Below are positions 46-41,400 of a DNA stretch of 44,922 nucleotides, piece after piece. The DNA lies in contig NIVC01003298.1 in NCBI GenBank assembly GCA_002269645.1, positions 1-44,922 of the forward strand. Reading direction: 5' to 3'. The position numbers and the translations under genes were made by a program. Source of the stretch: Macrostomum lignano (Eukaryota). Under the pieces are notes generated by a model, which saw only the letters and a program-made list of their open reading frames with translations, searched no databases and was not told the DNA's origin. Numbering within the stretch: position 1 is the stretch's first letter; the number at the start of each line of letters is the position of its first letter.

Positions 46-347
46 CTAATTGCCACACACCCCAAATTTTACATGTAAAAATGAATAGGTAGTTCGACGC
101 ACTCTTAACTGAATTTCACACACTTCCTTCAGTTCGATCTAAACGCCGAAAAGAACAGAACGTGCAAGCCTAACTCGCTCAAGCACTCGTTTCTTCTTCT
201 GACGGCGTTGAGTTCCCATCTCACTTGATTCTACTAAGAGACAGCATTTGCTTGTGCAAATTTGCACATCAAATTCACGGGCAATACATAAAAAAAGCAA
301 ATTTAACCTCACCAAACACGAATTCCTGTCACCCCCATGAGCCAGCA

Positions 348-806
348 TCATACGTTGGTGCTGCCATACCCCGACTCCCGAACCGTCACCAACAGTGGAC
401 AGTTGGCCCTCCCTGGCCCGACCGACCTCCACGGGGGGCGTGGCAAAACGTTCCAGAACCAGCAAGGCCACATGCATCGCGCACGGCAGATGGATCTTCT
501 CATCCGGCGTGCGGTACAGAATCACGCGGAGCTCGGGTCCACCACGCAACCCTGCACAGTCAGGCCCCGATTGGCCCAACTTGAGCGGCTCGTGCATGTA
601 ATCCGGCCATAGGTGCCCGGCAGCAGGATAACGCGAAGGCCTGTGCGTATGATGACAGTATCACAGTCCTTCACGGCCCGATCTTCACAGGTAGCCAAAT
701 CGTACCCAACTGATCCCGCCGTGCCCCGCCGCGGCATCACAGCGCCGTGATCCACTAGCACGACGCGCAGCGGGACTGTCGAGCAGGCGCTGGATGTAGT
801 ACTCAT
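348..806 (-). pseudogene. dut: Intronless trimeric dUTPase pseudogene (two frameshifts), probably viral/mobile-element derived
   Basis: ATG at 806 in GCCACGATG context. Motif I VGYDL, TGLRVILLPGTYGRI, motif II RSSWA, motif III GCVVDP then a deletion of the expected DYRG with frameshift (~530) into ELRVILY...HVALLVLERFATPPVEV (motif IV region). A second shift (~385) leads into TVRESGYGSTNV-stop (motif V, RGxxGFGST-like), TGA at 350-348. Confidence 0.85.
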
Positions 807-1071
807 CGTGGCTGAGGGTTCATAGCTCATAAGATTCTTATCGCCTTCTATAATGAGTCTAGTACTAAGCCTAGTACTAACCCCACTATCATCCAAGAAA
901 AAAATACATTGAGAAAAAAGAAAGACGGAAATCAAATTCTTGCACATACATTCGATAGCGCATATTTTGCGAGCAAAACAACATAAACAGACAGACAATA
1001 GAGAACAATTGAAGTCAACCGCCAATGACCAAATGGGAATTATGAGTAGAGATCAACCTTAGGATGAGTAG

Positions 1072-1640
1072 TGGAGAAGCTCATGTTAATGTCGGTTAAG
1101 CTTCTCCAGCATGAAAGATGGTCAATTTACTCTAAACCCCAAATGTACTATTCCTAAGCCGCTACGTGCTGGTGTCATTTACAAATTTTCGTGCGCTGGT
1201 ATGGTATGTTAAAACAGAGCGACACCTACACACATGAGCGAATGAACATTTCAGAAAAGTGTCCGCTGTACATGATCACCTTCTCGTGTGCCACCAATGT
1301 ACCCAACGCAAGCATATTGACCAATTCAGTATTACATGTATTGACAACAGTCAATACAGTGGAAAGCTGCCAACTTTAGAAGCATTGTACATAAAAGAGC
1401 TTAAACCCACCCTCAACAGCCAGCTATTTAACGGAGGCACTAGTTTATATTTAAAGATTTTCTGACTGTCTTTTCTTATTCTGTGCGTTCACCCACCACC
1501 ACTTTTGTTAGCCTTTACCCTCTTGCTCTTATCCACTTATATTTTCGCGCGGTTTTCGTTTAACCTATCCATAACTCATCCATCGCCTGACGATGCCACT
1601 TGTGTGGCGAAACATGTCGCTAAACTAAAAAATATATCGT
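1072..1640 (+). mobile_element. 5'-truncated, decayed Penelope-like retroelement (GIY-YIG endonuclease C-terminus plus 3' pLTR region)
   Basis: Broken frames read IPKPLRAGVIYKFSCAG...KTERHLHT*ANEHFRKVSAVHDHLLVCHQC...LEALYIKELKPTLNSQ...LYLKIF* (stop 1465), the typical PLE GIY-YIG tail. A T-rich 3' region and a hammerhead motif follow. Confidence 0.88.
1584..1621 (+). ncRNA. Minimal type I hammerhead ribozyme (Penelope-type)
   Basis: CTGACGA (1587-1593), T, stem II GCCAC/GTGGC with TTGT loop (1595-1608), GAAA (1609-1612), palindromic CATG stem III, GTC cleavage triplet (1616-1618). Stem I is only 2 bp (GC/GC). Confidence 0.8.
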
Positions 1641-1704
1641 TCACAAAATCTCGTTAGATATAGCTTATAATGATAAATTTGTTTTTCTTACTACTAATTA
1701 ATAT

Positions 1705-1935
1705 TAGGCGTAGCAACCTACCATAATTGCCTGTGTCTAATACACCGCACTCAACCAATTCTTTAAACGTCTCCTTAGGAGCCGTTTCCGGGTCGGCCAT
1801 AACCAATGCCAGGATCAAACTATCCGTATCTCCATCAAGCACACGTGCAGAAGCAAGTGACCGATGGCATTGAATCCTTGATGCCCAGCACTTCGTTGTC
1901 ATAGCCGCCAAAGTGGCACAGTTCATTCCGGATGT
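1705..1935 (-). pseudogene. Fragment of a family B DNA polymerase resembling Polinton/Maverick protein-primed PolB (motif C region)
   Basis: NCATLAAMTTKCWASRIQ...ARVLDGDTDSLILAL...VLDTGNYG aligns by eye with the pPolB pattern N..IAAFTT.(W/H)ARL...RVLY.DTDS.I...L.TG(D/N)YLG. DGDTDS is one substitution (GAT/TAT) from YGDTDS. Confidence 0.6.
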
Positions 1936-1947
1936 CACCCCGGAGAA

Positions 1948-2233
1948 AGCAGTCCGTTCTTCACTAGAGAGCGGCTAAACCACCTCGGTCCAAACCCATC
2001 TATCGATGACGCTTGCAGACCCGAGAACATCCACGGCTCGTCCGGTTTCTTCGGGCAACTAGACAAGCCTTTTTCTTCCCCAACGAAGAAAACGCTGCAG
2101 GACGAACCGGCGTACCGCCCTGACTGGGCCCTGCACCATAGCCGAAGCGGGTCACCAGGGTTTAGCGGAAAGGGCGGCGATCGCCTCCCCGCTGCGTCTT
2201 CGGACTGTCCTGCAGTTAAGTAAGTCAAGTCAA
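1948..2233 (+). mobile_element. 3' end of a non-LTR retrotransposon (copy 1 of 3; I/LOA/R1-like C-terminus)
   Basis: Reads PFFTRERLNHLGPNPSIDDACRPENIH/RLVRFLRATRQAF, homologous to the copy at 38013-38140 ([15 protein letters not shown]...[18 protein letters not shown]). It shares the 3' UTR block and ends in AAGTAAGTCAAGTCAA. Confidence 0.8.
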
Positions 2234-2817
2234 ATGGTCCTGTCAAACACAAAATATCGTCTTGTCAAACAAAAAAGTGCGTCATTTTAAATATTAAAGA
2301 AGCGTCCTGCCGACCATCGAAGACTCATGACTGGAAGGCTGGGAAAATGGCTATGATGCTGTGACTTTTGGGGAGAATCGTTGAGATATCAAGGCTCATG
2401 TGGGAGTTTCTGAGATGTCAAACTCGGGGGTGGAATTGCTGAAATTCTGTGACTCTTGGTGAGCATTACTGAATCGTCAAAGCTCAATGGGGGGTTGCTT
2501 AAATGCTGTGCTCATGTCAAGGGATGTCAAAGGTCAATTAGAAGTTGGTAGGCCAAGCCAAAGGCAGATCAAAGGCAGAGTTATAGGGTTCAGCCATGGC
2601 TTAAAGGGAGGCTTGGGTGCCAAAGCTCTCAGAGGATGCTGATATCCTAGGCTAGATATCTGGCTCTCTGAGCTGATGCTTTTTGCTGTAAGCAACATTT
2701 TCTTTAAGAATAGCAAGGTCGAAAGCTACATGGATTTTACTCGATTTTTTTATTCCTTTCTTTGTTGCCTCCCCAATAAGGCGATGATTGCGAGTCAGAT
2801 ACTAAATCTGAGGACTC

Positions 2818-2913
2818 CACGCCTATCAGACCCCACTCCAGACACTTGATCTGGAGGGACTCCACCACGCCTATCAGACCCCACTCCAGACACTTGATCT
2901 GGAGGGACTCCAC
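2818..2913. repeat. Perfect 48-bp tandem duplication, each unit with a CTCCAGA/TCTGGAG hairpin
   Basis: CACGCCTATCAGACCCCACTCCAGACACTTGATCTGGAGGGACTCCAC occurs twice in tandem. Confidence 0.9.
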
Positions 2914-3311
2914 GACTTGGCCATCATACTCCACTCCAGATGCTGAGTCTGAGGACACTAAAGAACTTCGCAGATTATCAGTGCATCACTTACTATTCAA
3001 CAATGGACAATCGCATGCACCCTCCAGCTTATAGAGTGGCTTGCGCAAACTACTTTATCTTGCTATAGCGATAGCCTAGATATCAATGCACTGCGCATAC
3101 GCGTGCTCAGGGACTGAGTCGCAAAAATACACTCCGAGAAAAAAAAGAGATGCAAATGGGGTGGCTTGCAGCGGAATTGGAGGGTCTTGAGGTAAAGAAA
3201 AATGCAATAAAGCAAGGGCCCGACCGGACCGTAATAACCCGCATACTCGTATAGACCTGCAATTTTGTTGCTATCGCTCAGTCAATATTCACAACAGGAT
3301 CAGCAGGAACA

Positions 3312-4487
3312 ATGGGCAACCTGACCAGCAGCAGCGGACCAAGGATTCCAAACTACAAGCCTGAAAAAGTGTACCTGTTCACCTTTCCCAGCGTCCGGTG
3401 CTGCCCAACAATATCGCCGTTCGCTCTGAAGGTGGAGTCCTGGCTGAGGCTCAATGGCATCGAGTACGAGGCTATTCGCAGCTACAGCCACTGGAGCAAG
3501 AAGGGCCAGGTGCCGTTCGTTGAAGTTGACGGCAGAGAGATCAACGAGTCCAGCTTCATCATCAAGGAGCTGGCGGCCAAGTTCAACAAGCTGGACGACC
3601 TGACTGCCGAGCAGCAGGCCGTGTCCAGCATGGTGGAGGCCATGGTGGACAACCACCTGGTGTGGTCGTACAGCCACTACCGGATGCTCGTCCGGAAGCT
3701 CCCGTCTTCTTCGAGATGTGGGAGGGAATGGGCGCGGTGAAGCGCGCCATCGCGTCCCGGACAATTCCGCGCAACTACAGATCCCGGCTGGAGGGCCACG
3801 GAATGGGCCGGAACACAGTAGAGGAGATTCACGCCATGGGCTGCGACGACATCCGGGCTCTGTCTGGCCTGCTCGTTGACAAGCAGTTCCTGATGGGCGG
3901 CGAGGCGCCACGGTTGTCGATTGCGCCGTGTTCTCGCACCTGGCGCAGATCTGGTGAGGGATTTGACCAAGGGCAAAAGTACGCGCGTTCGCATATACGC
4001 ACCGGACTCACACAAGGTGTACTCTGACTCTGTGCCATCGCAATTGGCCCCGTGCCATTTGCAGAACATTCTTGACTCCAGAAGCCGAGAGTTTTGAATC
4101 ATATTGTCCATATCATTCATTAATCTGTTTACAGCACAACCTTTTGTCTGTAAAGAATCGAACCCAGGCCTCAGGTTCTTGAGATTCATTACTCAGCACT
4201 TCACCGGTGGAATATGAAGATTATTTAGCAAAGAAACTGCCTTCGACCATTCCAGGTATTCGCCTTTGAAGCCGCCGCACAAAGCGGTGATGGAGACGGA
4301 AGCCAAGAATCTGGGGCCCTACCTGGACAGGCTGAAGCGCATAATCTGGCCCGATTGGGACGAATTCTGTGTGGCCAATGTGCAGCCGAATGAAAAACTG
4401 CTGCGGACTGACGGCTGCTACCGAAGCTGCCGACCGAGGACAATGAGGAAGCATCGAGTGATCAGCAGTAGTGACCAGCAGGAGTGA
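3312..4487 (+). CDS. fax: Failed axon connections (fax/FAXC)-like GST-fold protein; 2 exons, two 1-nt frameshifts as assembled
   Basis: Exon 1 3312-3953: MGNLTS (myristoylation-type start), CCPTISPFALKVESWLRLNGIEYE, SKKGQVPFVEVDGREINESSFII; shift ~3690 to RLEGHGMGRNTVEEI...DDIRALSGLLVDKQFLMG; shift ~3909 to PTVVDCAVFSHLAQIW. GT-AG intron 3954-4255. Exon 2 has YLDRLKRIIWPDWDE. Stop is at 4487 as assembled, or TAG 4469-4471 if a further shift exists. Confidence 0.88.
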
Positions 4488-5045: not shown

Positions 5046-5744
5046 AGGAATGATAAATTTTTATTAGAGTGACCAAGATAACCATTAAGAAATGATCACC
5101 ATAACAATCTAGGAGTGACCATCGTGACTATTCCAATGCGTTAAATACTGAGTGTGAGCTGGTTCAGTAATTATGTCTACATAAGTACTTTTCCTTATTC
5201 AAATTGCGATAGTTACATGTATACCCGTACTTAAGGATTTTCAATCGTTAGATGTGTCATAATAATAAAGAGAAAAAAATGGTAAAATAATGTATAGAAA
5301 AAGAGTATAAAAGACTATTTTTATACTAACAGTAGCACTTTAAGCGTTCTATTCTGCTGAGTTTTCTTTTCAAAGATATTTTTTGAGAAATCGATTAAGA
5401 ACGAACGGGTGCTGAAGTTCAGTCTGCAGCTACTCAATAAACGGAAGAGAAGTCAAATTGAGCACCGAAGGCAACATCTGTGCGGAATTTTCCCACAGCG
5501 CTGGCAAATAACACGTGTGGAACAGGGGGGGGGGGGGCTGAACTCTCTGCTCCCATTCTGCAAGCCCCGTCTGACACTCCCGAGTTTTACTTTCTGATTT
5601 CCCATACTACGAGAATTTCTCCCTGAAATTTCCGTCTCAGAATATGCAGATTTCTCATCTGTGTAACTTCTGATTCTGCAAATTGGCCTGCCATGAATAT
5701 AATTGCCCCAGTAAATCCACCATTCTCCCAATCTGCAATTCCCA

Positions 5745-7771
5745 ATCTCCAATTAGAAATTCCCACATTCTCCAATTAGAAATTCCGCATTCTCCAATTA
5801 GAAATTCCCCCATTCTCCAATTAGAAATTCCCATTCTCCAATTAGAAATTCCCATTCCCAATTAGAAATTCCCGCATTCTCCAATTAGAAATTCCCGCAT
5901 TCTCCAATTAGAAATTCCCCCATTCTCCAATTAGAAATTCCTCCATTCTCCAATTAGAAATTCCCACATTCTTCCAATTAGAAATTCCCCATTCTTCCAA
6001 TTAGAAATTCCTCCATTCTCCAATTAGAAATTCCCCATTCTTCCAATTAGAAATTCCCCCATTCTTCCAATTAGAAATTTCCCCATTCTCCCCATTAGAA
6101 ATCCCCCATTCTCCAATTAGAAATTCCCCCATTCTCCAATTAGAAATTCCTCCATTCTCCAATTAGAAATCCCCATTCTCCAATTAGAAATCCCCCATTC
6201 TCCAATTAGAAATTCCCGCATTCTCCCAATTAGAAATTCCCCCATTCTTCCAATTAGAAATTCCCCCATTCTCCCAATTAGAAATTCCCCCATTCTCCCA
6301 ATTAGAAATTCCTCCATTCTCCAATTAGAAATTCCTCCATTCTCCAATTAGAAATTCCCCCATTCTCCAATTAGAAATTCCTCCATTCTCCAATTAGAAA
6401 TTCCCCCATTCTCCAATTAGAAATTCTCCATTCTCCAATTAGAAATTCCCATTCTCCAATTAGAAATTCCCCTTCTCCAATTAGAAATTCCCCATTCTCC
6501 AATTAGAAATTCCCCATTCTCCAATTAGAAATTCCCCATTCTCCAATTAGAAATTCCCCATTCTCCAATTAGAAATTCCCCATTCTCCAATTAGAAATTC
6601 CCCCATTCTCCAATTAGAAATTCCCCATTCTCCAATTAGAAATTCCCCATTCTCCAATTAGAAATCCCCCATTCTCCAATTAGAAATTCCCCATCTCCAA
6701 TTAGAAATTCCCCCATTCTCCAATTAGAAATTCCCCATTCTCCAATTAGAAATTCCCCATTCTCCCAATTAGAAATTCCCATTCTCCATTCTCCAATTAG
6801 AAATTCCTCCATTCTCCAATTAGAAATTCCTCCATTCTCCAATTAGAAATTCCCCCATTCTCCAATTAGAAATTCCTCCATTCTCCAATTAGAAATTCCC
6901 CCATTCTCCCAATTAGAAATTCCTCCATTCTCCAATTAGAAATTCCTCCATTCTCCAATTAGAAATTCCCCCATTCTCCAATTAGAAATTCCCCATTCTC
7001 CAATTAGAAATTCCCCCATTCTCCAATTAGAAATTCCTCCATTCTCCAATTAGAAATTCCCCCATTCTCCAATTAGAAATTCCCCATTCTCCAATTAGAA
7101 ATTCCCCCATTCTTCCAATTAGAAATTCCCCCATTCTCCAATTAGAAATTCCCCCATTCTCCAATTAGAAATTCCCCCATTCTCCAATTAGAAATTCCCC
7201 CATTCTCCAATTAGAAATTCCCCATCCTCCAATTAGAAATTCCCCCATTCTCCAATTAGAAATTCCTCCATTCTCCAATTAGAAATTCCCCCATTCTCCC
7301 AATTAGAAATTCCCCCATTCTCCAATTAGAAATTCCTCCATTCTCCAATTAGAAATTCCCCCATTCTCCAATTAGAAATTCCCCATTCTCCAATTAGAAA
7401 TTCCCCATTCTCCAATTAGAAATTCTCCATTCTCCAATTAGAAATTCCCCATTCTTCCAATTAGAAATTCCCCCATTCTTCCTTAGAAATTCCCCATTCT
7501 TCCAATTAGAAATTCCCCCATTCTCCAATTAGAAATTCCCCATTCTCCAATTAGAAATTCCCCATTCTCCAATTAGAAATTCCTCCATTCTCCAATTAGA
7601 AATTCCCCATCCTCCAATTAGAAATTCCTCCATTCTCCAATTAGAAATTCCCCCATTCTCCCAATTAGAAATTCCCGCATTCTCCAATTAGAAATTCCCC
7701 ATTCTTCCAATTAGAAATTCCCCATTCTCCAATTAGAAATTCCATTCTCCAATTAGAAATTCCCCCATTCT
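5745..7771. repeat. ~22-23-bp satellite TTCTCCAATTAGAAATTCCCCCA, ~2 kb
   Basis: Directly visible; variable C-run length, degenerate margins on both sides. Confidence 0.97.
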
Positions 7772-11800: not shown

Positions 11801-14800
11801 AAAGGTGTCCTCTGTTTGAGGAGAGGTGTCCTGTGTTTGAGGAGAGGTGTCCTGTGTTTGAGGAAAGGTGTCCTCTGTTTGAGGAGAGGTGTCCTGTGTT
11901 TGAGGAAAGGTGTCCTGTGTTTGAGGAAAGGTGTCCTCTGTTTGAGGAGAGGTGTCCTGTGTTTGAGGAGGGGTGTCCTCTGTTTGAGGAGGGGTGTCCT
12001 CTGTTTGAGGAGGGGTGTCCTGTGTTTGAGGAGGGGTGTCCTCTGTTCGAGGAAAGGTGTCCTCTGTTTGAGGAGGGGTATCCTCTGTTTGAGGAGAGGT
12101 ATCCTGTGTTTGAGGAGAGGTGTCTGCTCCTTAATTGAGTTTTTAACGGGCTCCAAATTTGTTAATTTTCAGGACGAGAAGAACCAGATCATGACCACAA
12201 ATGTTTGGCTAAGAGAGGTCAGTGTCCCACCGCTCGTTTATTGATTTCTGTTGCTTTTGCTCTTTGCAAAGTCTCAAACATACACGATGCTCAATCGCAT
12301 TCAGGTGTGGTATGACAGCAAACTAACGTGGGATCCAGCAAAGTACCACGGAGTGAGCACACTCTACATTCCGTCTGAGCACATCTGGTTGCCGGATATT
12401 GTGCTGTACAACAAGTGAGGATTATATGATGCGGTTGACCATTCAGAGACTATAGAATGCCCCTAAACTGCTTCCCCTTCCAATTCACCCCTTCTCCCTC
12501 TCACCCTCCCTCTTACCTTCTCCCTCTCACCCTCCCTCTTACCTTCTCCCTCTTACTCTCCCTCTTACCTTCTCCTTCTCACTCTCCCTCTTACCTTCTC
12601 CCTCTCACTCTCCCTCTTACCTTCTCCCTCTCACTCTCCCTCTTACCTTCTCCCTTCTCACTCTCCCTCTTACCTTCTCCTTCTCATTCCCCCTCTTACC
12701 TTCTCCCTCTCACTCTCCCTCTTACCTTCTCCCTCTCACTCTCCCTCTTACCTTCTCCCTTCTCACTCTCCCTCTTACCTTCTCCTTCTCATTCCCCCTC
12801 TTACCTTCTCCCCTCTCACTCTCCCTCTTACCTTCTCCCTCTCACTCTCCCTCTTACCTTCTCCTTCTCACTCTCCCTCTTACCTTCTCCTTCTCATTCC
12901 CCCTCTTACCTTCTCCCCTCTCACTCTCCCTCTCTTATCTTCTCCCTCTCACTCTCCCTCTCCCCTGACACTCTCCATCTCCCTCTCACTCTACCCTATC
13001 CCTCTCACCTGCAGTTATCAGCTGTCACACCCTTAAGACTATCCCTATCTGCACACAGTTAGCATGCAGCTTACTCATCTTTCAGATTATTTAGCACACG
13101 TTAACAATTGTCTGTCACATAAAATTTGAACAGCGCCGACGGCAACTACGAGGTGACGCTCATGACGAAGGCGTCACTGAAAAGTACAGGAAAAATTCTA
13201 TGGGAGCCGCCGGCCATCTATAAATCCTCCTGCCAAATTGATGTGGAGTTTTTCCCATTCGACAGCCAGGAGTGCACGATGAAGTTTGGCAGCTGGACAT
13301 ACGACGGATTGCAGGTTTCTACTGAGATATGCAAAATAACAAATTCTCTCTCTTCTCTCTCTCTTCACTCTCTCTTCTCTCTCCCTTCCCCCGACCTCTC
13401 TCTCCCTTCTCTCTCCTTTCTCTCTCCCTTCTCTCTCCTTTCTCTCTCCCTTCCCCTGACTTCTCTCTCCCTTCTCTCTCCCTTCTCTCCCCCTTCTCTC
13501 TCCCTTCTCTCTCCCTTCTCTCTCCCTTCCCTCTCCCTTCTCTCTCCCTTCAGTCTCTCCCTTTACTCTCTCCCTTTCCTCTCCCTTCTCTCTCCTTTCT
13601 TTCTCCCTTCTCTCTCCCTTCTCTCCCCCTTCCCTCTCCCTTCTCTCTCCCTTCACTCTCCCTTCTCTCTCCCTTCAGTCTCTCCCTTTACTATCTCCCT
13701 TTCCTCTCCCTTCTCTCTCCCTTCCCTCTCCCTTCTCTCTCCCTTCCCTCTCCCTTCTCTCTCCCTTCAGTCTCTCCCTTTACTCTCTCCCTTTCCTCTC
13801 CCTTCTCTCTCCTTTCTTTCTCCCTTCTCTCTCCCTTCTCTCTCTCCCTTCCTTCTCCCTTCTCTCTCCCTTCACTCTCCCTTCTCTCTCCCTTCAGTCT
13901 CTCCCTTTACTCTCTCCCTTTCCTCTCCCTTGTCTATCCTTTCATCCTCTCCCTTACCTTTCCTCAATTTCTTAGTATTTTCTTCCCTGTCCTGTGCCAC
14001 ACGAGTACAATATTGCGCCTTGTCTCTGGTCCAACTAACCGCATTTTTAATGCATGACAGCTGAAATTTGCAAGTTAAATATTTTTGACCATCTCAGCAT
14101 CCTGATCTCTTCTCCTTATGTTCTCGCCATTGCCCAAAGAAAGTTTCATTCGCATATTTGCCAGCAAAGTCCAATTCAGGACTCGAGAAGCTTCAAGCCT
14201 CTTATCTCACTCTTGGGTCCCTGGTTTCCACCCAGCCTCTTCATCTTGACGCCTGAAAGCCCCTCGCACTCGGCACAGAAGCAGATAAAAAACTTCTCCC
14301 TTTCAGCTCGCTTTCAATTATCCCCTGGGCGAAGAAAGCGCTTGATTTTTCACGCCAGCCTCGGCTTGACGAGCTCGGGTCTTCATTTCACCTAGCCTAC
14401 TGATCGCACTCAATAATAACTACTAGCAGTAGTGCAATGCATGTATGCCTTAGATTCACTCTAAAAAATCAATATTGAACATTTTTATCGTACGCTTAGC
14501 GTAGATTTATGATTTAATTAATTATCAGAGGGCGCTGACCAATTTCATTCAAAACACATCAAAGGGCGCCGAACAAACAGTCTCTATTCTGACACCAAAG
14601 GGTGCCGACCAATCTCTCTCAAAGCATATCAAAGGGCGCCGAACAGTCTCTCTTATGAAATTAAAGGGCGCCGCACAATCTCTCGTATGAAATCAAAAGG
14701 CGCCGGCACAATCTCTCGTATGAAATCAAAAGGCGCCGGCACAATCTCTCGTATTACATCAAAGGACACAGAACAATCTCCCCCAAAGCACATTAAAGAG

Positions 14801-17800
14801 CGCCGACCAATTTCTCTCAAAGCACATCAAAGGGCACCGACCAAGCTCCCTCAAAGCACATCAAAGGGCGCCGACCAAGCTCTCTCAAAGCACATCAAAG
14901 GGCGCCGACCAATCTCTCTCAAAGCACATCAAAGGGCGCCGACCAAGCTCTCTCAAAGCACATCAAAGGGCGCCGACCAATCTCTCTCAAAGCACATCAA
15001 AGGGCGCCGACCAATCTCTCTCAAAGCACATCAAAGGGCGCCGACCAATCTCTCTCAAAGCACATCAAAGGGCGCCGACCAATCTCTCTCAAAGCACATC
15101 AAAGGGCGCCGACCAATCTCTCTCAAAGCACATCAAAGGGCGCCGACCAATCTCTCTCAAAGCACATCAAAGGACGCCGACCAATCTCCTTCAAACACCT
15201 CTCTTCCCAGGTGGACCTTCGCCACATTCAGCAGGCCAACACCAGCCAATGGGAGGTGGACTACGGCATCGATCTGGAGACCTTCTACGAGTCCACCGAG
15301 TGGGACGTGATGCGAGTGCCAGCCAGGCGGAACGAGAAGACCTACCCCTGCTGTCCGGAGCCGTACCCGGACATCACCTTTACCATCGTGCTGCGCCGCA
15401 AGACCCTATTCTACACCGTGAACCTCATCATTCCCTGCGTCGCCATCAGCTTCCTAACCGTGATGGTGTTCTACCTGCCATCCGACAGCGGCGAAAAGAT
15501 CACCCTGTGCATCTCCATCCTGCTGGCTCTCACCGTGTTCTTCCTTCTGCTGGCAGAGACAATACCGCCAACATCGCTTGTTGTGCCTCTGATTGGCAAG
15601 TACCTGCTGTTCACCATGATTCTCGTCACCTTGTCGATTGTAGTCACTGTGGTGGTGCTCAACGTGCACTTCCGGGGTCCCAGCACCCACCGGATGGCGC
15701 CCTGGGTGCGGCGACTCTTTCTTGAGTCACTGCCTGAGCTGCTGCTGATGCCGAGGCCCAGCATGCATGAGGTGAGTAACTTGAGCTCTAGGCTTCTCAC
15801 TGTGGCTTCTATACTGTGGCTTCTCACTGTGGCTTCTCACTGCGGCTTCTCCCTCACTGTGGCTTCTCACTGTGGCTTCTATACTGTGGCTTCTCACTGC
15901 GGCTTCTATACTGTAACTTCTCACTGTGGCTTCTCCCTCACTGTGGCTTCTCACTGTGGCTTCTCAATGCATCTACTCGTAGCTCGTAAACAGTGTGGCT
16001 TTTAAGATTAGCGTCTGATGAAATTGCATGAGACATTTAATATCGTAAATGTATTTGAAAAAACTCAAACAACACAAAAAATAGAAGTTACTACTTCTCT
16101 ACTGACAGTAGAGTAATCAGCCTAGTCTAAATATTTCTCGTTCAACTTCAAATAGCTCGATTGACCATTTTGTTAAAAATAACGCAGCGCCTGCAAGACC
16201 TCGGCCGAGCCACCCTCAACCGAAGTCGGGCGTCCGTGCCGCAGTCTCCGCCTCCAGCAACGTGGCATCAGCAGCAGCAGCAGCAGCAGCAGCCGCTCCT
16301 GCACAGCTCCGGCGAGCAGCGACCGGATGCAGCATCAGCCGGGACGTCCCCGGAGGTTGGCCGACGACGCCGTCTGGCCAGGGACCTGGAGGTGCTGCTG
16401 CTGAACTCCAGCGACGAGGCGCAGAATTCGCGGAATATGGCTGCCGCGGCAGCTGCCAGTTCAGCGTCCGGGCAGAAGCAGCCGCGCTTCAAGCGGGATG
16501 TCCATGCCGCTCTGGACGGCGTCGAGTTCATCGCGCGTCACCTGAAGCAGGACGATGTAGAGAAGAGTGTGAGAAGACACATTTCACATCATATCGGGTG
16601 CAATAGAAACATTGAGACACATTGCACATGATAACAGGAGAGACATTGAGACACATTACACATGATAACAGGAGAGACATTGAGACACATTACACATGAT
16701 AACAGGAGAGACATTGAGACACATTACACATGATAACAGGAGAGACATTGAGACACATTACACATGATAACAGGAGAGACATTGAGGCACATCGTACATG
16801 ATAACAGGAGAGACATTGAGACACATTGCACATGATAACAGGAGAGACATTGAGACACATTACACATGATAACAGGAGAGACATTGAGACACATTGCACA
16901 TGATAACAGGAGAGACATTGAGACACATTGCACATGATAACAGGAGAGACATTGAGACACATTGCACATGATAACAGGAGAGACATTGAGACACATTGCA
17001 CATGATAACAAGAGAGACATTGAGATACATTGTACGTGACAACAGGAGAGACATTGAGACACATTACACATGATAACAGGAGAGACATTGAGGCACATCG
17101 TACATGATAACAGGAGAGACATTGAGACACATTGCACATGATAACAGGAGAGACATTGAGACACATTGCACATGATAACAGGAGAGACATTGAGACACAT
17201 TGCACATGATAACAGGAGAGACATTGAGACACATTGCACATGATAACAAGAGAGACATTGAGATACATTGTACGTGACAACAGGAGAGACATTGAGACAC
17301 ATTGCACATGATAATGGGAGAGATATTGAGACACATTGCACATGATAATGGGAGAGACATTGAGACACATTGCACATGATAATGGGAGAGATATTGAGAC
17401 ACATTGCACATGATAATGGGAGAGATATTGAGACACATTGCACATGATAATGGGAGAGATATTGAGACACATTACACATGCTATCGATGATCATGGAGAC
17501 GCATTTTCTATAGTCAAATTTATTAGACAAAGGTGATTTATGATCAATTATTTCAGATCAAAGAGGACTGGAAGTTCGTTGCCATGGTGCTTGACAGGCT
17601 GTTTCTTTGGATTTTCTCAATCGCTTGCATTCTAGGTGAGTGGGAGAACCGACTGCTTAGTAAGACAGTCCTTGAAGCAGAAAGATGAGCTGCATTCTAA
17701 ACCTGAAAATTGCAGGCACAATCGGGATCATCCTGCAGGCGCCTTCCCTATACGATGGCAACCTACCCATTGATTTGAAGAATTTGTCTCACCTGTCTGA

Positions 17801-38486: not shown

Positions 38487-41400
38487 TTACAAAGCTCCCG
38501 TTGGCCTGGCTTTCCGCTGGAAGGACTTCTTGAGGTGCACCAGCCGTCTGGCAACAGCGTGGCCCCATGTGGAGCCGTACCATTCGATGCTGTGGCCGCG
38601 CAGGTCGACTCGCGATAGCAGTGTCACCCGGGTGGCGCCGGGGCCGGCGGACTGCACCAGCCAGTCTTCAACCAGGACCAGAGCAGACAGGGTTAGCGGA
38701 GAGGTCGGCAGGCGCACGGAAGTTGAATACAATGAGTGGCTGTGGGCGCTGGCTGAGCGCCAGGCACGCAGCAGGCAGGTCTCGCGGCTTGGCTGGGCTG
38801 GCGGGGACGCCAGGGTGCGCCGGACTACATCGGAGGCTTCGTCTAGCGATTCTAAAGTCTCCGACTTGAGAACGTCCGGGTCCCAGGACTCGCTGCAAAT
38901 GAAATCATTGAACTTTATGAATTGATCACTTTATCTTCTTGAACTCCTAAACTCTTTGGTTAATAATTCGTACAGGTGTTCAGGAAGAGCAAACCAACCT
39001 CTCAGTGACAATCCTGTTGAGCACATCAGTCGAGTCGGCCTCAATCAAGACCAACGCTTTCCACAACCGCAACGGATGGCCATCGTCCACAACTTTGAAG
39101 AAGGTCTCGATTCCCGACCGGTGGCTGAACGGCACCCATTTTTCGTTCTGGCAGGTCTCCCTGGCAACCAGCTGGGCGTGATTTTCAACAAAAGCAAAGC
39201 AGTGGCGCCGGCCGATGGAGTCTAGCGGAGCCACGGCGTCAAGAATTGGCACCTGCAGCTCTTCTGAGCGACTCTCGGCTAGTCGGCGGTACAGCTCGTC
39301 AGGAACCTGGCAGGTGCAAAAATATTACGACGGTGTGAAGACAAAAGACGAGGTTTTCTATTCGAGCCTAAGTCTGGTCTCGTCACTGCAAAGATCAATG
39401 GAAAACTGAGTTTTCGAATCAGTTTGTTTTTTTTCGACAACTCACCGTGAACATCCGATGGCAACAGTCGATCATGAAGGCCAGACAGGCCGCTGCAGCT
39501 TTGTGATCCTCGAGATCTCGCGGGTCCGGCGCGCCGCCTCCGGGCCGTCGGAATCGGCTTGGCGTGGCCGCCGCCACTTGGTGCGGAAAGTAAAACAGCG
39601 ACGGCGCGAGACACACAGCCAAGTTTGACGGCGTCATCTGTGTGGTGTCTGAGCAATCAGCGAAATCGTTTAGGAAGTAGAGCAGTGCCTGCAGCACCTG
39701 CCGATTCTCGTCCGGCAGTAGGAGCGCAGCCGCCTGCACGGCCGCCAGAAGCACCGAATCGGTCTCAACGTGGCTGAATATGGCCAGAAGTGTTGGCGAC
39801 AGTTTGTGCGTGATCAGGCACTCGGGCAGCTCGCGGAGGTAGGCCTTGACCAGGTCGGCCAGGTCGTACGGCTGGCAACGGCTGAAGTCCGACTTGTCCG
39901 GGTCGGCGTCGATCTCGGCCCGTAGAGCCGACACCCGGGCCTTGCCGCCGGCCCGGCGGAAGATGCCGTGCGCTGAGACGCCACTCTGGCGCAGCTGGCG
40001 CATCAGGTGGATAACCGCCGAGGGCAGCGGCTGGCCGTAGCGCATCTGCACAGTGAACAGCGGCATGCCGAACACGGCGGTTTTTGCCGCTGTCGGTGCC
40101 GACGACGGCGATGCCGGCAATGACTGGCCGAGGGGAACGATGCTAGGCGAGGCGTTCGGCGACGCAGAAGATTTGGATCGCTTGGCTGGCTTCTGGTTAC
40201 TCCTGTGGAACGGAAAAATAAGTACAATCAGAATTTCTCCAACTGAAATTGGTGATTGGAATTTGCATCAGTCAATCTTACTTACCAGGTGAACAGCGGC
40301 TTATTCGGCGGGCAGTGCTGCCGCACAATCTTGTTAATCTCTTCGCAGGCTGCATTTCGTAGCACCCGCAGCTGCGTCACCGACATCCCGGATATCTGCA
40401 GTTCGCGCTGGTTGACATTGGGCCGGTGTGACCGGGCGAAAGACGACCAGCGGAACTTCGTGCCGCGCTTCAACCCACCAGCGCTGCCGTTCTCTTCCTG
40501 CTGCTCCTCCTGCTGATCAGAGTCCGAGTGTCGCGGCTCGCCGTCGAACGGGGACCTTCGGTGATGGAGAACGGTTTATGAGACCTCGAACTCGTATATC
40601 CCTCCCCGCCTCCCCTTGTGAGGCACTCTATACTCACATTGACTCCAGCAGTGCGGTTGCCATCGCGGACTCTTCATCGCTGGCCGCAGTCTTCGACGCC
40701 ACCGCTACAGACGACGACGATGCTGAGGAGGCTGGCGGCGCCGGCTGCAACAGCAGCTGATCGAGCTCGGCTATGTTCTCCATCAGGTCCGAATCGTCAG
40801 CCCAGCCGCCGCTGCTCCTGCCGCCGCCGCCTCCGCCGCCACCGGTGCTGCCGCTTCCCAGTGGTCCGGAGTTCGACTTAGCCGGCAGAGTGCAATACCC
40901 TTGCAGTGCGAATGAATGAAGAGTGCTCCTTAGTATCCACCCATGCTATGGTTGCAGTTTGCTGGCCCAGAACAATTTTCATATCGATTTTTCCAATTTA
41001 TCAAGTTTGACAACTTTGCGACTTTGGCTGATCAATAAATAATACGCTCGTAAATAGTAACTCTTTGCAGCTCTTTCGAGCTATACTTAGGGGTTTGTAG
41101 CCTAGTGGTTAGAGCGTCGGACTCACTATTCAGTTTGAGGTCGGGAGTTCGATTCTTCACCCACAACTATTTGTGTCCTTGAGCAAAACACTTCGTTGTA
41201 AAATGGGTACCAGCATTAGCTGGGGTGATGCGCCGAGCAATAGCTTCAGTTGCACATCTGCCCAGTAGGGCAGCTGTAATCAATTATTATTTATTATAAT
41301 TACTCGAGTCAGTTATCTCACCGTGTCTCCATGCGGTAGTAGAATCGAAGTCTAATCGAATCCCGAACGAAAAATTATTAGTCATGCCTCGAGTATTGAA

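Follow-up and report, generated by a model that had tools for sequence, protein, structure and literature searches.

A dead, internally deleted Polinton in Macrostomum lignano and its dUTPase-carrying relatives

Animal Polintons (Mavericks), as described for a vertebrate set, have 5'-(AGT)2//(ACT)2-3' ends, duplicate 6 bp of target, span 15 to 21 kb, and are mostly degraded (PMC8097293). Their genes include a protein-primed polymerase (PolB), an rve integrase, both capsids, an ATPase, and a protease; the core genes are under purifying selection, and conservation of the capsid is argued to be a sign of a particle stage (PMC8097293). The elements of the flatworm Macrostomum lignano described below share these features, with a candidate ATPase and a candidate minor capsid. 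They differ in that all of their core genes lie on one strand, that a dUTPase, a deoxynucleoside kinase, and a TBP-like gene are added, and that one family has two GT-AG joints, whereas intact vertebrate elements are reported there to be without introns (PMC8097293).

PLA2X, a gene typical of the Alpha virion module, and the Alpha and Beta classes were defined in PMC8502044, and mixed Alpha/Beta pairings have been described for adintoviruses (PMC11071296). Adintoviruses resemble the present elements in having PLA2X, an integrase with a C-terminal chromodomain, and accessory genes upstream of PolB (PMC8502044, PMC11071296). In the main text of PMC8502044, non-animal MELD viruses are the only ones for which dUTPase and TBP are mentioned. 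Its supplementary adintovirus maps bear one "dUTPase" label and no "kinase" label, so a dUTPase cargo is not without precedent.

In nematode pPolB1 and pPolB2 Polintons, too, the polymerase contains a nuclease domain, and modules pass from one Polinton lineage to another (10.1101/2023.08.22.554363). Both classes belong to Group 2 by the published definition, given which we dropped a "pPolB2" label for our polymerase, whose insert is of the endonuclease VII type (PF02945). The consulted text of that study mentions neither dUTPase nor kinase, and no Polinton dUTPase was found in the accessible parts of PMC6431247, PMC9341512, and 10.64898/2026.10.13.758929. Bidna-like segments, with their Tkoid and Utoid genes, likewise hold a dUTPase and a deoxynucleoside kinase beside a viral polymerase (PMC11071296).

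Our literature search, to which Repbase and subscription journals were external, found no description of these elements in M. lignano; the sole paper found naming both "Macrostomum" and "polinton" concerns, in the text available, Tc1/mariner. Large DNA viruses also keep a dUTPase and a deoxynucleoside kinase beside the polymerase. In contrast to those supply genes, the ones reported here reside in an integrating element of 15 to 21 kb, and in one family the kinase is fused to a TBP-like domain and its transcripts appear to be spliced.

Structure of the relic

The window, the whole stretch of 44,922 nucleotides that was analyzed, is contig C3298 of the 764-Mb genome (other contigs are named in the same way). 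Its bases 47 to 1881 are almost certainly a broken, internally deleted Polinton/Maverick (adintovirus-like) relic, whose parts are listed in Table 1. The relic itself is ordinary, decayed Polinton pieces being common, and this copy does nothing now.

Table 1. Features of the relic and its inserts in the window
Feature	Coordinates	Strand	Evidence
Terminal inverted repeat remnant, AGTAGT tip lost	47..170		71% over 127 columns to the C1668 element end, E 3e-13; 76% to C297 element positions 19-104
Start of PLA2X gene	187..290	-	tblastn E 8e-4 at 187-249; DNA 74% at 191-289; relative's frame is PF08398
dUTPase pseudogene	348..830	-	PF00692; PDB; alignment to natural C1668 frame; dN/dS 0.12-0.13 vs that frame
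PolB-dUTPase spacer with deletions, homologous to relatives' spacer	831..1012	-	continuous DNA alignment 191-1054, 66% including gaps
Last ~14 codons of protein-primed PolB	1013..1054	-	tblastn to PolB residues 1461-1482; DNA alignment
Dispersed repeat, Penelope-like (plausible but weak)	1055..1722	+	47 genome matches
PolB motif-C piece, residues ~1302-1355 of relative	1723..1881	-	89% DNA identity; 37 genomic matches; motif context
3' end of RNase H-bearing LINE	1882..2237	+	53 matches with split orientation; copies carry PF00075

The terminal-repeat remnant and the PLA2X start extend the relic beyond the span covered by the initial annotation. The two are joined almost directly, which places the loss of about 7 kb of core genes, from ATPase to protease, between them; no further Polinton pieces were found in the window, and integrase and capsid are absent from this copy. 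Having lost one end, it has no pair of flanks in which to read a 6-bp target duplication. Contigs of independent runs bridge the junction of repeat and PLA2X (three of four runs), that at 1054 (three of four), and that at 1881 (one of four), so the mosaic is not an assembly artifact. A second copy, on C257, has both inserts in common with the window; over 2,294 columns, 26 substitutions and 19 gaps set the two apart. Bases 67 to 83, within the terminal repeat, form a near-perfect palindrome that is kept in family A (one of the five families of relatives described below) and in a derivative on C3654, and may be a binding site.

The initial annotation had described an intronless, decayed minus-strand dUTPase with five motifs traceable across two frameshifts. 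The gene at 348 to 830 is borne out by matches to PF00692 (E = 4.9e-9, N-terminal half) and to a PDB dUTPase (E = 5.5e-14). Both frame changes were found, one within motif 3 (near 530) and the other before motif 5 (about 365 to 395); motif 3 is only partly present, and the count of five was generous. In family A, motif 5 departs from what we take to be the usual pattern. Compared with family A, two stretches of the window's dUTPase give dN/dS values of 0.12 (86 codons) and 0.13 (41 codons), and its PolB piece gives 0.15 (53 codons), which indicates that the relic's lineage diverged while it was functional.

A Penelope insertion had been thought to separate the dUTPase and PolB genes. The 668-bp insert instead falls within PolB, whose final codons are found on its far side, at 1013 to 1054; about 340 bp of PolB is missing between the two pieces, with the insert in its place. 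From our reading of motifs, we take the insert to have a GIY-YIG-like 3' end and a hammerhead-like core near 1587 to 1615. GIY-YIG leads its ESM Atlas matches (0.92, the family being on 15% of that cluster), and folding, examined for the hammerhead, gave a z score of -1.1. Hammerheads have been linked to Penelope elements (PMC4209133). Pfam and Rfam gave no match to the insert, Rfam was blank over 900 to 3200, no reverse transcriptase was found within 7 to 10 kb of its copies in nine stretches, and of the three loci that the Pfam GIY-YIG family matched genome-wide, none resembles the insert. Its assignment as a Penelope-like element is plausible but weak. On C200, C2750, and C3313, sequence from the insert's 3' part is present again in inverted pairs 11 to 14 kb apart, and frames near the C200 pair resemble a BEL/Pao retrotransposon. 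In the LINE, the 5' piece (1882 to 1953) is inverted. Later hits by a Penelope-like element and a LINE had been proposed, and both inserts are present.

The PolB motif-C fragment reported in the same orientation was confirmed in part. Piece 1723 to 1881 aligns to a natural PolB frame of 1,482 codons on C1668, which matches PF03175 (E = 3.5e-20) and not a cellular polymerase, and which contains an endonuclease VII insert (PF02945). By itself the piece has no Pfam or PDB match, and it was identified via its relatives in the genome; several of its genomic matches lie inside frames of 1,400 to 1,480 codons, and the top ESM Atlas matches for PolB are PF03175 clusters. The letters "AAMTT.CWA.R" that had been read as part of the fragment are not PolB. 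Polinton homology ends at 1881, and these letters are an antisense reading of the inverted LINE piece; LINE copies translate to almost the same letters. Similarly, "TGNYG," which had been read as TG(D/N)YLG, is what remains of "LDTSNYP" truncated at the insert junction. These readings implied the AAFTT type, which is wrong; with ILDLAK..GDTDS..LDTSNYP and an endonuclease VII insert, the polymerase belongs to the other type known from Polintons. Families examined and six outside relatives have the context IL(D/E)..K..Y...Y...GDTDS...LD(T/S)SNYP, and all five outside relatives scanned have the PF02945 insert. Compared with adintoviruses, this PolB looks, from its motifs, like the divergent class (Beta, Polinton group 1), and Pfam scans for an OTU-like domain at its N terminus found no OTU family.

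Elsewhere in the window, an intronless glutathione S-transferase (GST)-like gene at 3311 to 3960, presumably of the failed-axon-connections type, is broken across two frames; in both of its copies on C257 the frame is open for 215 amino acids. Host exons for a ligand-gated ion channel lie at 14797 to 16005 and for a RhoGAP domain at 39419 to 40267. Minisatellite arrays are dense from 4456 to 35235 (Tandem Repeats Finder gives 66 rows for the whole window), and the 23-bp unit of 5741 to 7771 also adjoins the relic at bases 1 to 45.

Related families and the origin of the dUTPase

A dUTPase lies on the same strand downstream of 35 of the 37 matches to the PolB piece within 20 kb, and of 32 within 1.5 kb; this tally used 41 of 97 dUTPase matches, and neither C869 nor C3805 appears among all 97. 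Five families were recognized among the stretches fetched: A (C1668, C297, C362, and C1431), B (C2373, C1136, and C84), C (C1704 and C4619), D (C1680 and C2285), and E (C889 and C272). In all five, one strand carries PolB, dUTPase, PLA2X, and a putative ATPase in that order, followed, where the contig extends farther, by a putative minor capsid, two small frames, the integrase, another small frame, the capsid, and the protease. Elements measure 15 to 21 kb (18.9 kb on C889 and 14.7 kb on C3539). AGTAGT ends with terminal inverted repeats were found on C297, C362, C889, C3539, C4619, and C1668, and perfect 6-bp target duplications on C889 and C3539. These longer copies, whose existence the initial annotation had foreseen, bring together integrase, capsids, protease, terminal repeats, and an ATPase recognized by motif and position. 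Its proposal that the PolB and dUTPase fragments came from one Polinton holds, given their co-occurrence and the collinearity of the window's pieces with natural elements. The motif reasoning by which it was reached was mistaken.

On C1668, C297, C362, and C4619, the two flanks of the element are unlike within the contig, and three flanks of family A find their counterpart on another contig (C356/C1668, C1430/C362, and C1668/C297). Family A copies are 99.5 to 99.8% identical with different flanks; we read this pattern as the assembler having swapped flanks among young family A insertions. The copy at C1668:27365-42967 has its left part replaced by a 1,588-bp inverted right end (protease plus half of the capsid). 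It has a 6-bp flank in common with C356, where the flank likewise adjoins the protease side of an element, a sign that this inverted form was really inserted.

Several proteins of the relatives could be assigned. The integrase has an rve domain (PF00665, E = 5e-7, just under the curated cutoff) plus a chromodomain, and PLA2X matches PF08398 (E = 1.5e-8). The capsid is a predicted double jelly-roll major capsid protein; its model (pLDDT, 78) has its best fold matches, with E values down to 2e-15, in the capsids of iridovirus, PBCV-1, mavirus, and Sputnik. In the protease, the His, Gln, and Cys residues are invariant in seven of seven sequences, with a weak match to African swine fever virus (ASFV) S273R (E = 0.039) and a blank in Pfam. 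The ATPase has Walker A and B-like motifs in the expected place and no Pfam, PHROG, or PDB match. A conserved frame of 318 to 329 amino acids, without a profile match, is a candidate minor capsid from its position. An NCBIfam search gave nothing useful, and the capsid query found no relative in a viral contig collection.

A processed host pseudogene that came to lie beside a polymerase fragment by chance would also explain an intronless dUTPase, all the more as the host gene is itself a single open frame. We consider this next to impossible. The window dUTPase is 38 to 41% identical to the host protein and 80% identical to the Polinton protein, its neighbors are the same at 35 of 37 loci, and collinear alignment to whole elements refutes a chance juxtaposition. 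Phylogeny points the same way in a tree of 77 of 240 database proteins plus 13 genome rows (140 columns, with long branches flagged). There, the window dUTPase and family A cluster at 100/100, and a group of 17 rows (98/89) takes in every mobile dUTPase together with six database proteins, of which one is a nimavirus protein. The host dUTPase is placed among cellular sequences (100/93), so the window gene lies outside the host-gene group; the mobile dUTPases form no single exclusive clade in the larger tree. Approximately unbiased (AU) tests on 32 rows and 145 columns, again with long branches, gave P values of 0.049 for host with window and family A, 0.026 for host with all mobile dUTPases, and 0.57 for all mobile dUTPases together. 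A host origin of the element dUTPase is thus disfavored, the AU rejection being marginal.

The nimavirus dUTPase, among the best outside matches to the element protein at 46% identity, raises the question of whether the pieces came from a large DNA virus whose polymerase is RNA primed, of the nimavirus, herpesvirus, or nucleocytovirus type. The "xxxGDTDS" context, too, presumably resembles the polymerases of such viruses. This source is nevertheless highly improbable, given that the complete polymerase matches PF03175 and is encoded by 15- to 21-kb elements with AGTAGT ends, an integrase, and a double jelly-roll capsid. It is possible that a large virus was an earlier donor of the dUTPase to the Polinton lineage.

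The element dUTPase evolves under purifying selection: dN/dS is 0.07 for the family B dUTPase pair and, by comparison, 0.04 for the capsid. Its synonymous distance exceeds that of other genes, both between the window and family A (0.97 to 1.4 versus 0.34) and between full and PolB-deleted family B (0.64 versus 0.03 to 0.12 in eight other genes), from which we infer that the dUTPase cassette has been exchanged between subfamilies.

The PolB-deleted family B derivative is abundant. Twenty-seven dUTPase matches have one equal score (a count of matches and not of copies), and all four examined are family B elements without the polymerase core that retain the other genes, including an open dUTPase frame. 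Derivatives on C3654 and C4734 have a repeat-to-dUTPase deletion resembling that of the window. A second carrier of dUTPase consists of elements of about 10 kb with ACTAC ends. One of these (C1263:48014-58456; 10.4 kb, with 370-bp inverted ends) retains 664 amino acids of a pPolB that is of a different type, along with a PC4-like frame; its dUTPase nests among Polinton dUTPases at 96/94, and no capsid or integrase match was found in it.

Other arrangements were also observed. The element at C2132:148104-157572 (also on C2539 and C19) has 2.17-kb inverted arms with a dUTPase in each, ACTAC ends, and a 6-bp duplication. It was considered as a P-element carrying dUTPase, a reading ruled out because the THAP/P-like transposon is only nested there and has its own 30-bp ends. 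A distant Polinton type at C4:378061-392019 has capsid, integrase, ATPase, and protease, with no PolB match; its ends read ACTACT/AGTAGT, 6 bp of target is duplicated, and a P-like transposon is nested inside it. About 14 matches have near-equal capsid scores. Another distant Polinton, at C114:252057-264782, is without dUTPase; it has a PC4-like frame and a TBP gene that matches PF00352 strongly (E = 7e-21). A short relic of another family (C1361:194626-195717, also on C2131) consists of a PolB end, a family B-like dUTPase, and little else.

Nucleotide-supply genes and their possible role

The relic is commonplace, and what is less common is its kin: five families with a dUTPase behind PolB, four of them with a kinase, and all with a TBP-like gene. 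The TBP-like frame lies upstream of PolB in all five families (PF00352, E = 2e-7; TBP is the top fold match, E = 9e-5). A deoxynucleoside kinase (dNK, E = 5e-24) is found upstream of PolB in families A, C, D, and E, including the C1668 copy, and family B is without it. Family A combines the kinase and the TBP-like domain in one frame of 417 codons. Neither dUTPase nor kinase was found in the two distant Polintons on C114 and C4 (capsids 32% identical). Together with the kinase-free family B, these elements indicate that a Polinton in this host can do without dUTPase and kinase. Of 100 outside loci whose polymerases are related (26 to 36% PolB identity; 34 loci of at least 8 kb; collections holding few animal genomes), none had a dUTPase or a kinase, and a TBP-like frame was found at 13; profile controls in this screen were in-sample, and tblastn with the host dUTPase was also blank.

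Spliced joints were present in family A in three of four runs, from three studies, with 117 bases skipped in the kinase and 90 farther upstream. Both joints have GTAAGT...AG ends, and the skipped kinase part is kept in five genomic copies. This points to splicing of family A transcripts, in runs that we guess to be RNA; the fourth run covered 4 of 30 bins of family A. PLA2X of family C has a gap of 77 bases with GT-AG ends, predicted to be an intron. The runs used for family A disagree with the assembly at two positions of PolB, each a single base, and errors of assembly therefore probably account for some of the frame breaks in assembled copies.

We are confident that the window holds a dead, internally deleted Polinton; in its relatives, the dUTPase behind PolB likely serves the replication of the element's own DNA. 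From what is known of the group, an integrated copy would be excised, copied by protein-primed strand displacement, packaged, and reinserted by the integrase. The kinase would salvage deoxynucleosides, and the dUTPase would clear dUTP and supply dUMP, giving more dTTP and keeping uracil out; copying could then stay accurate where the host nucleotide supply is low, as in nondividing cells. The TBP-like protein may steer host transcription or polymerase to element promoters. The window copy would have diverged from family A under selection, then lost the capsid-integrase block by deletion, and afterward received the Penelope-like insert in PolB and the LINE at which the remaining homology stops.

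For the dUTPase and kinase jointly, judged from their enzyme families, we somewhat favor a role in nucleotide supply. They could also be passengers or have another role, such as limiting uracil-triggered repair in the germ line, the elements being only transposons. The abundant derivative that keeps an open dUTPase frame with no polymerase of its own speaks for this rather doubtful reading; the dN/dS values of 0.07 on dUTPase and 0.04 on the capsid oppose it for passengers, and capsid conservation fits a particle stage as argued for vertebrate elements in PMC8097293.

The role that we favor, nucleotide supply, has a further consequence. In flatworms, cell division is limited to stem and germ cells, and genes for nucleotide supply are to be expected in viruses replicating in nondividing cells, not in germ line transposons. 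The genes therefore bear on whether animal Polintons are real viruses. We suggest, with more doubt than belief, that this flatworm Polinton lineage may still act as nuclear DNA viruses, with a thymidine-supply gene pair, a TBP-like factor, spliced mRNAs, a polymerase-less, helper-dependent form that outnumbers them, and a dUTPase cassette traded even into elements with another polymerase type. If this is true, the formation or not of infectious particles by animal Polintons in somatic cells would be accessible to direct observation, in a host that is a laboratory animal.
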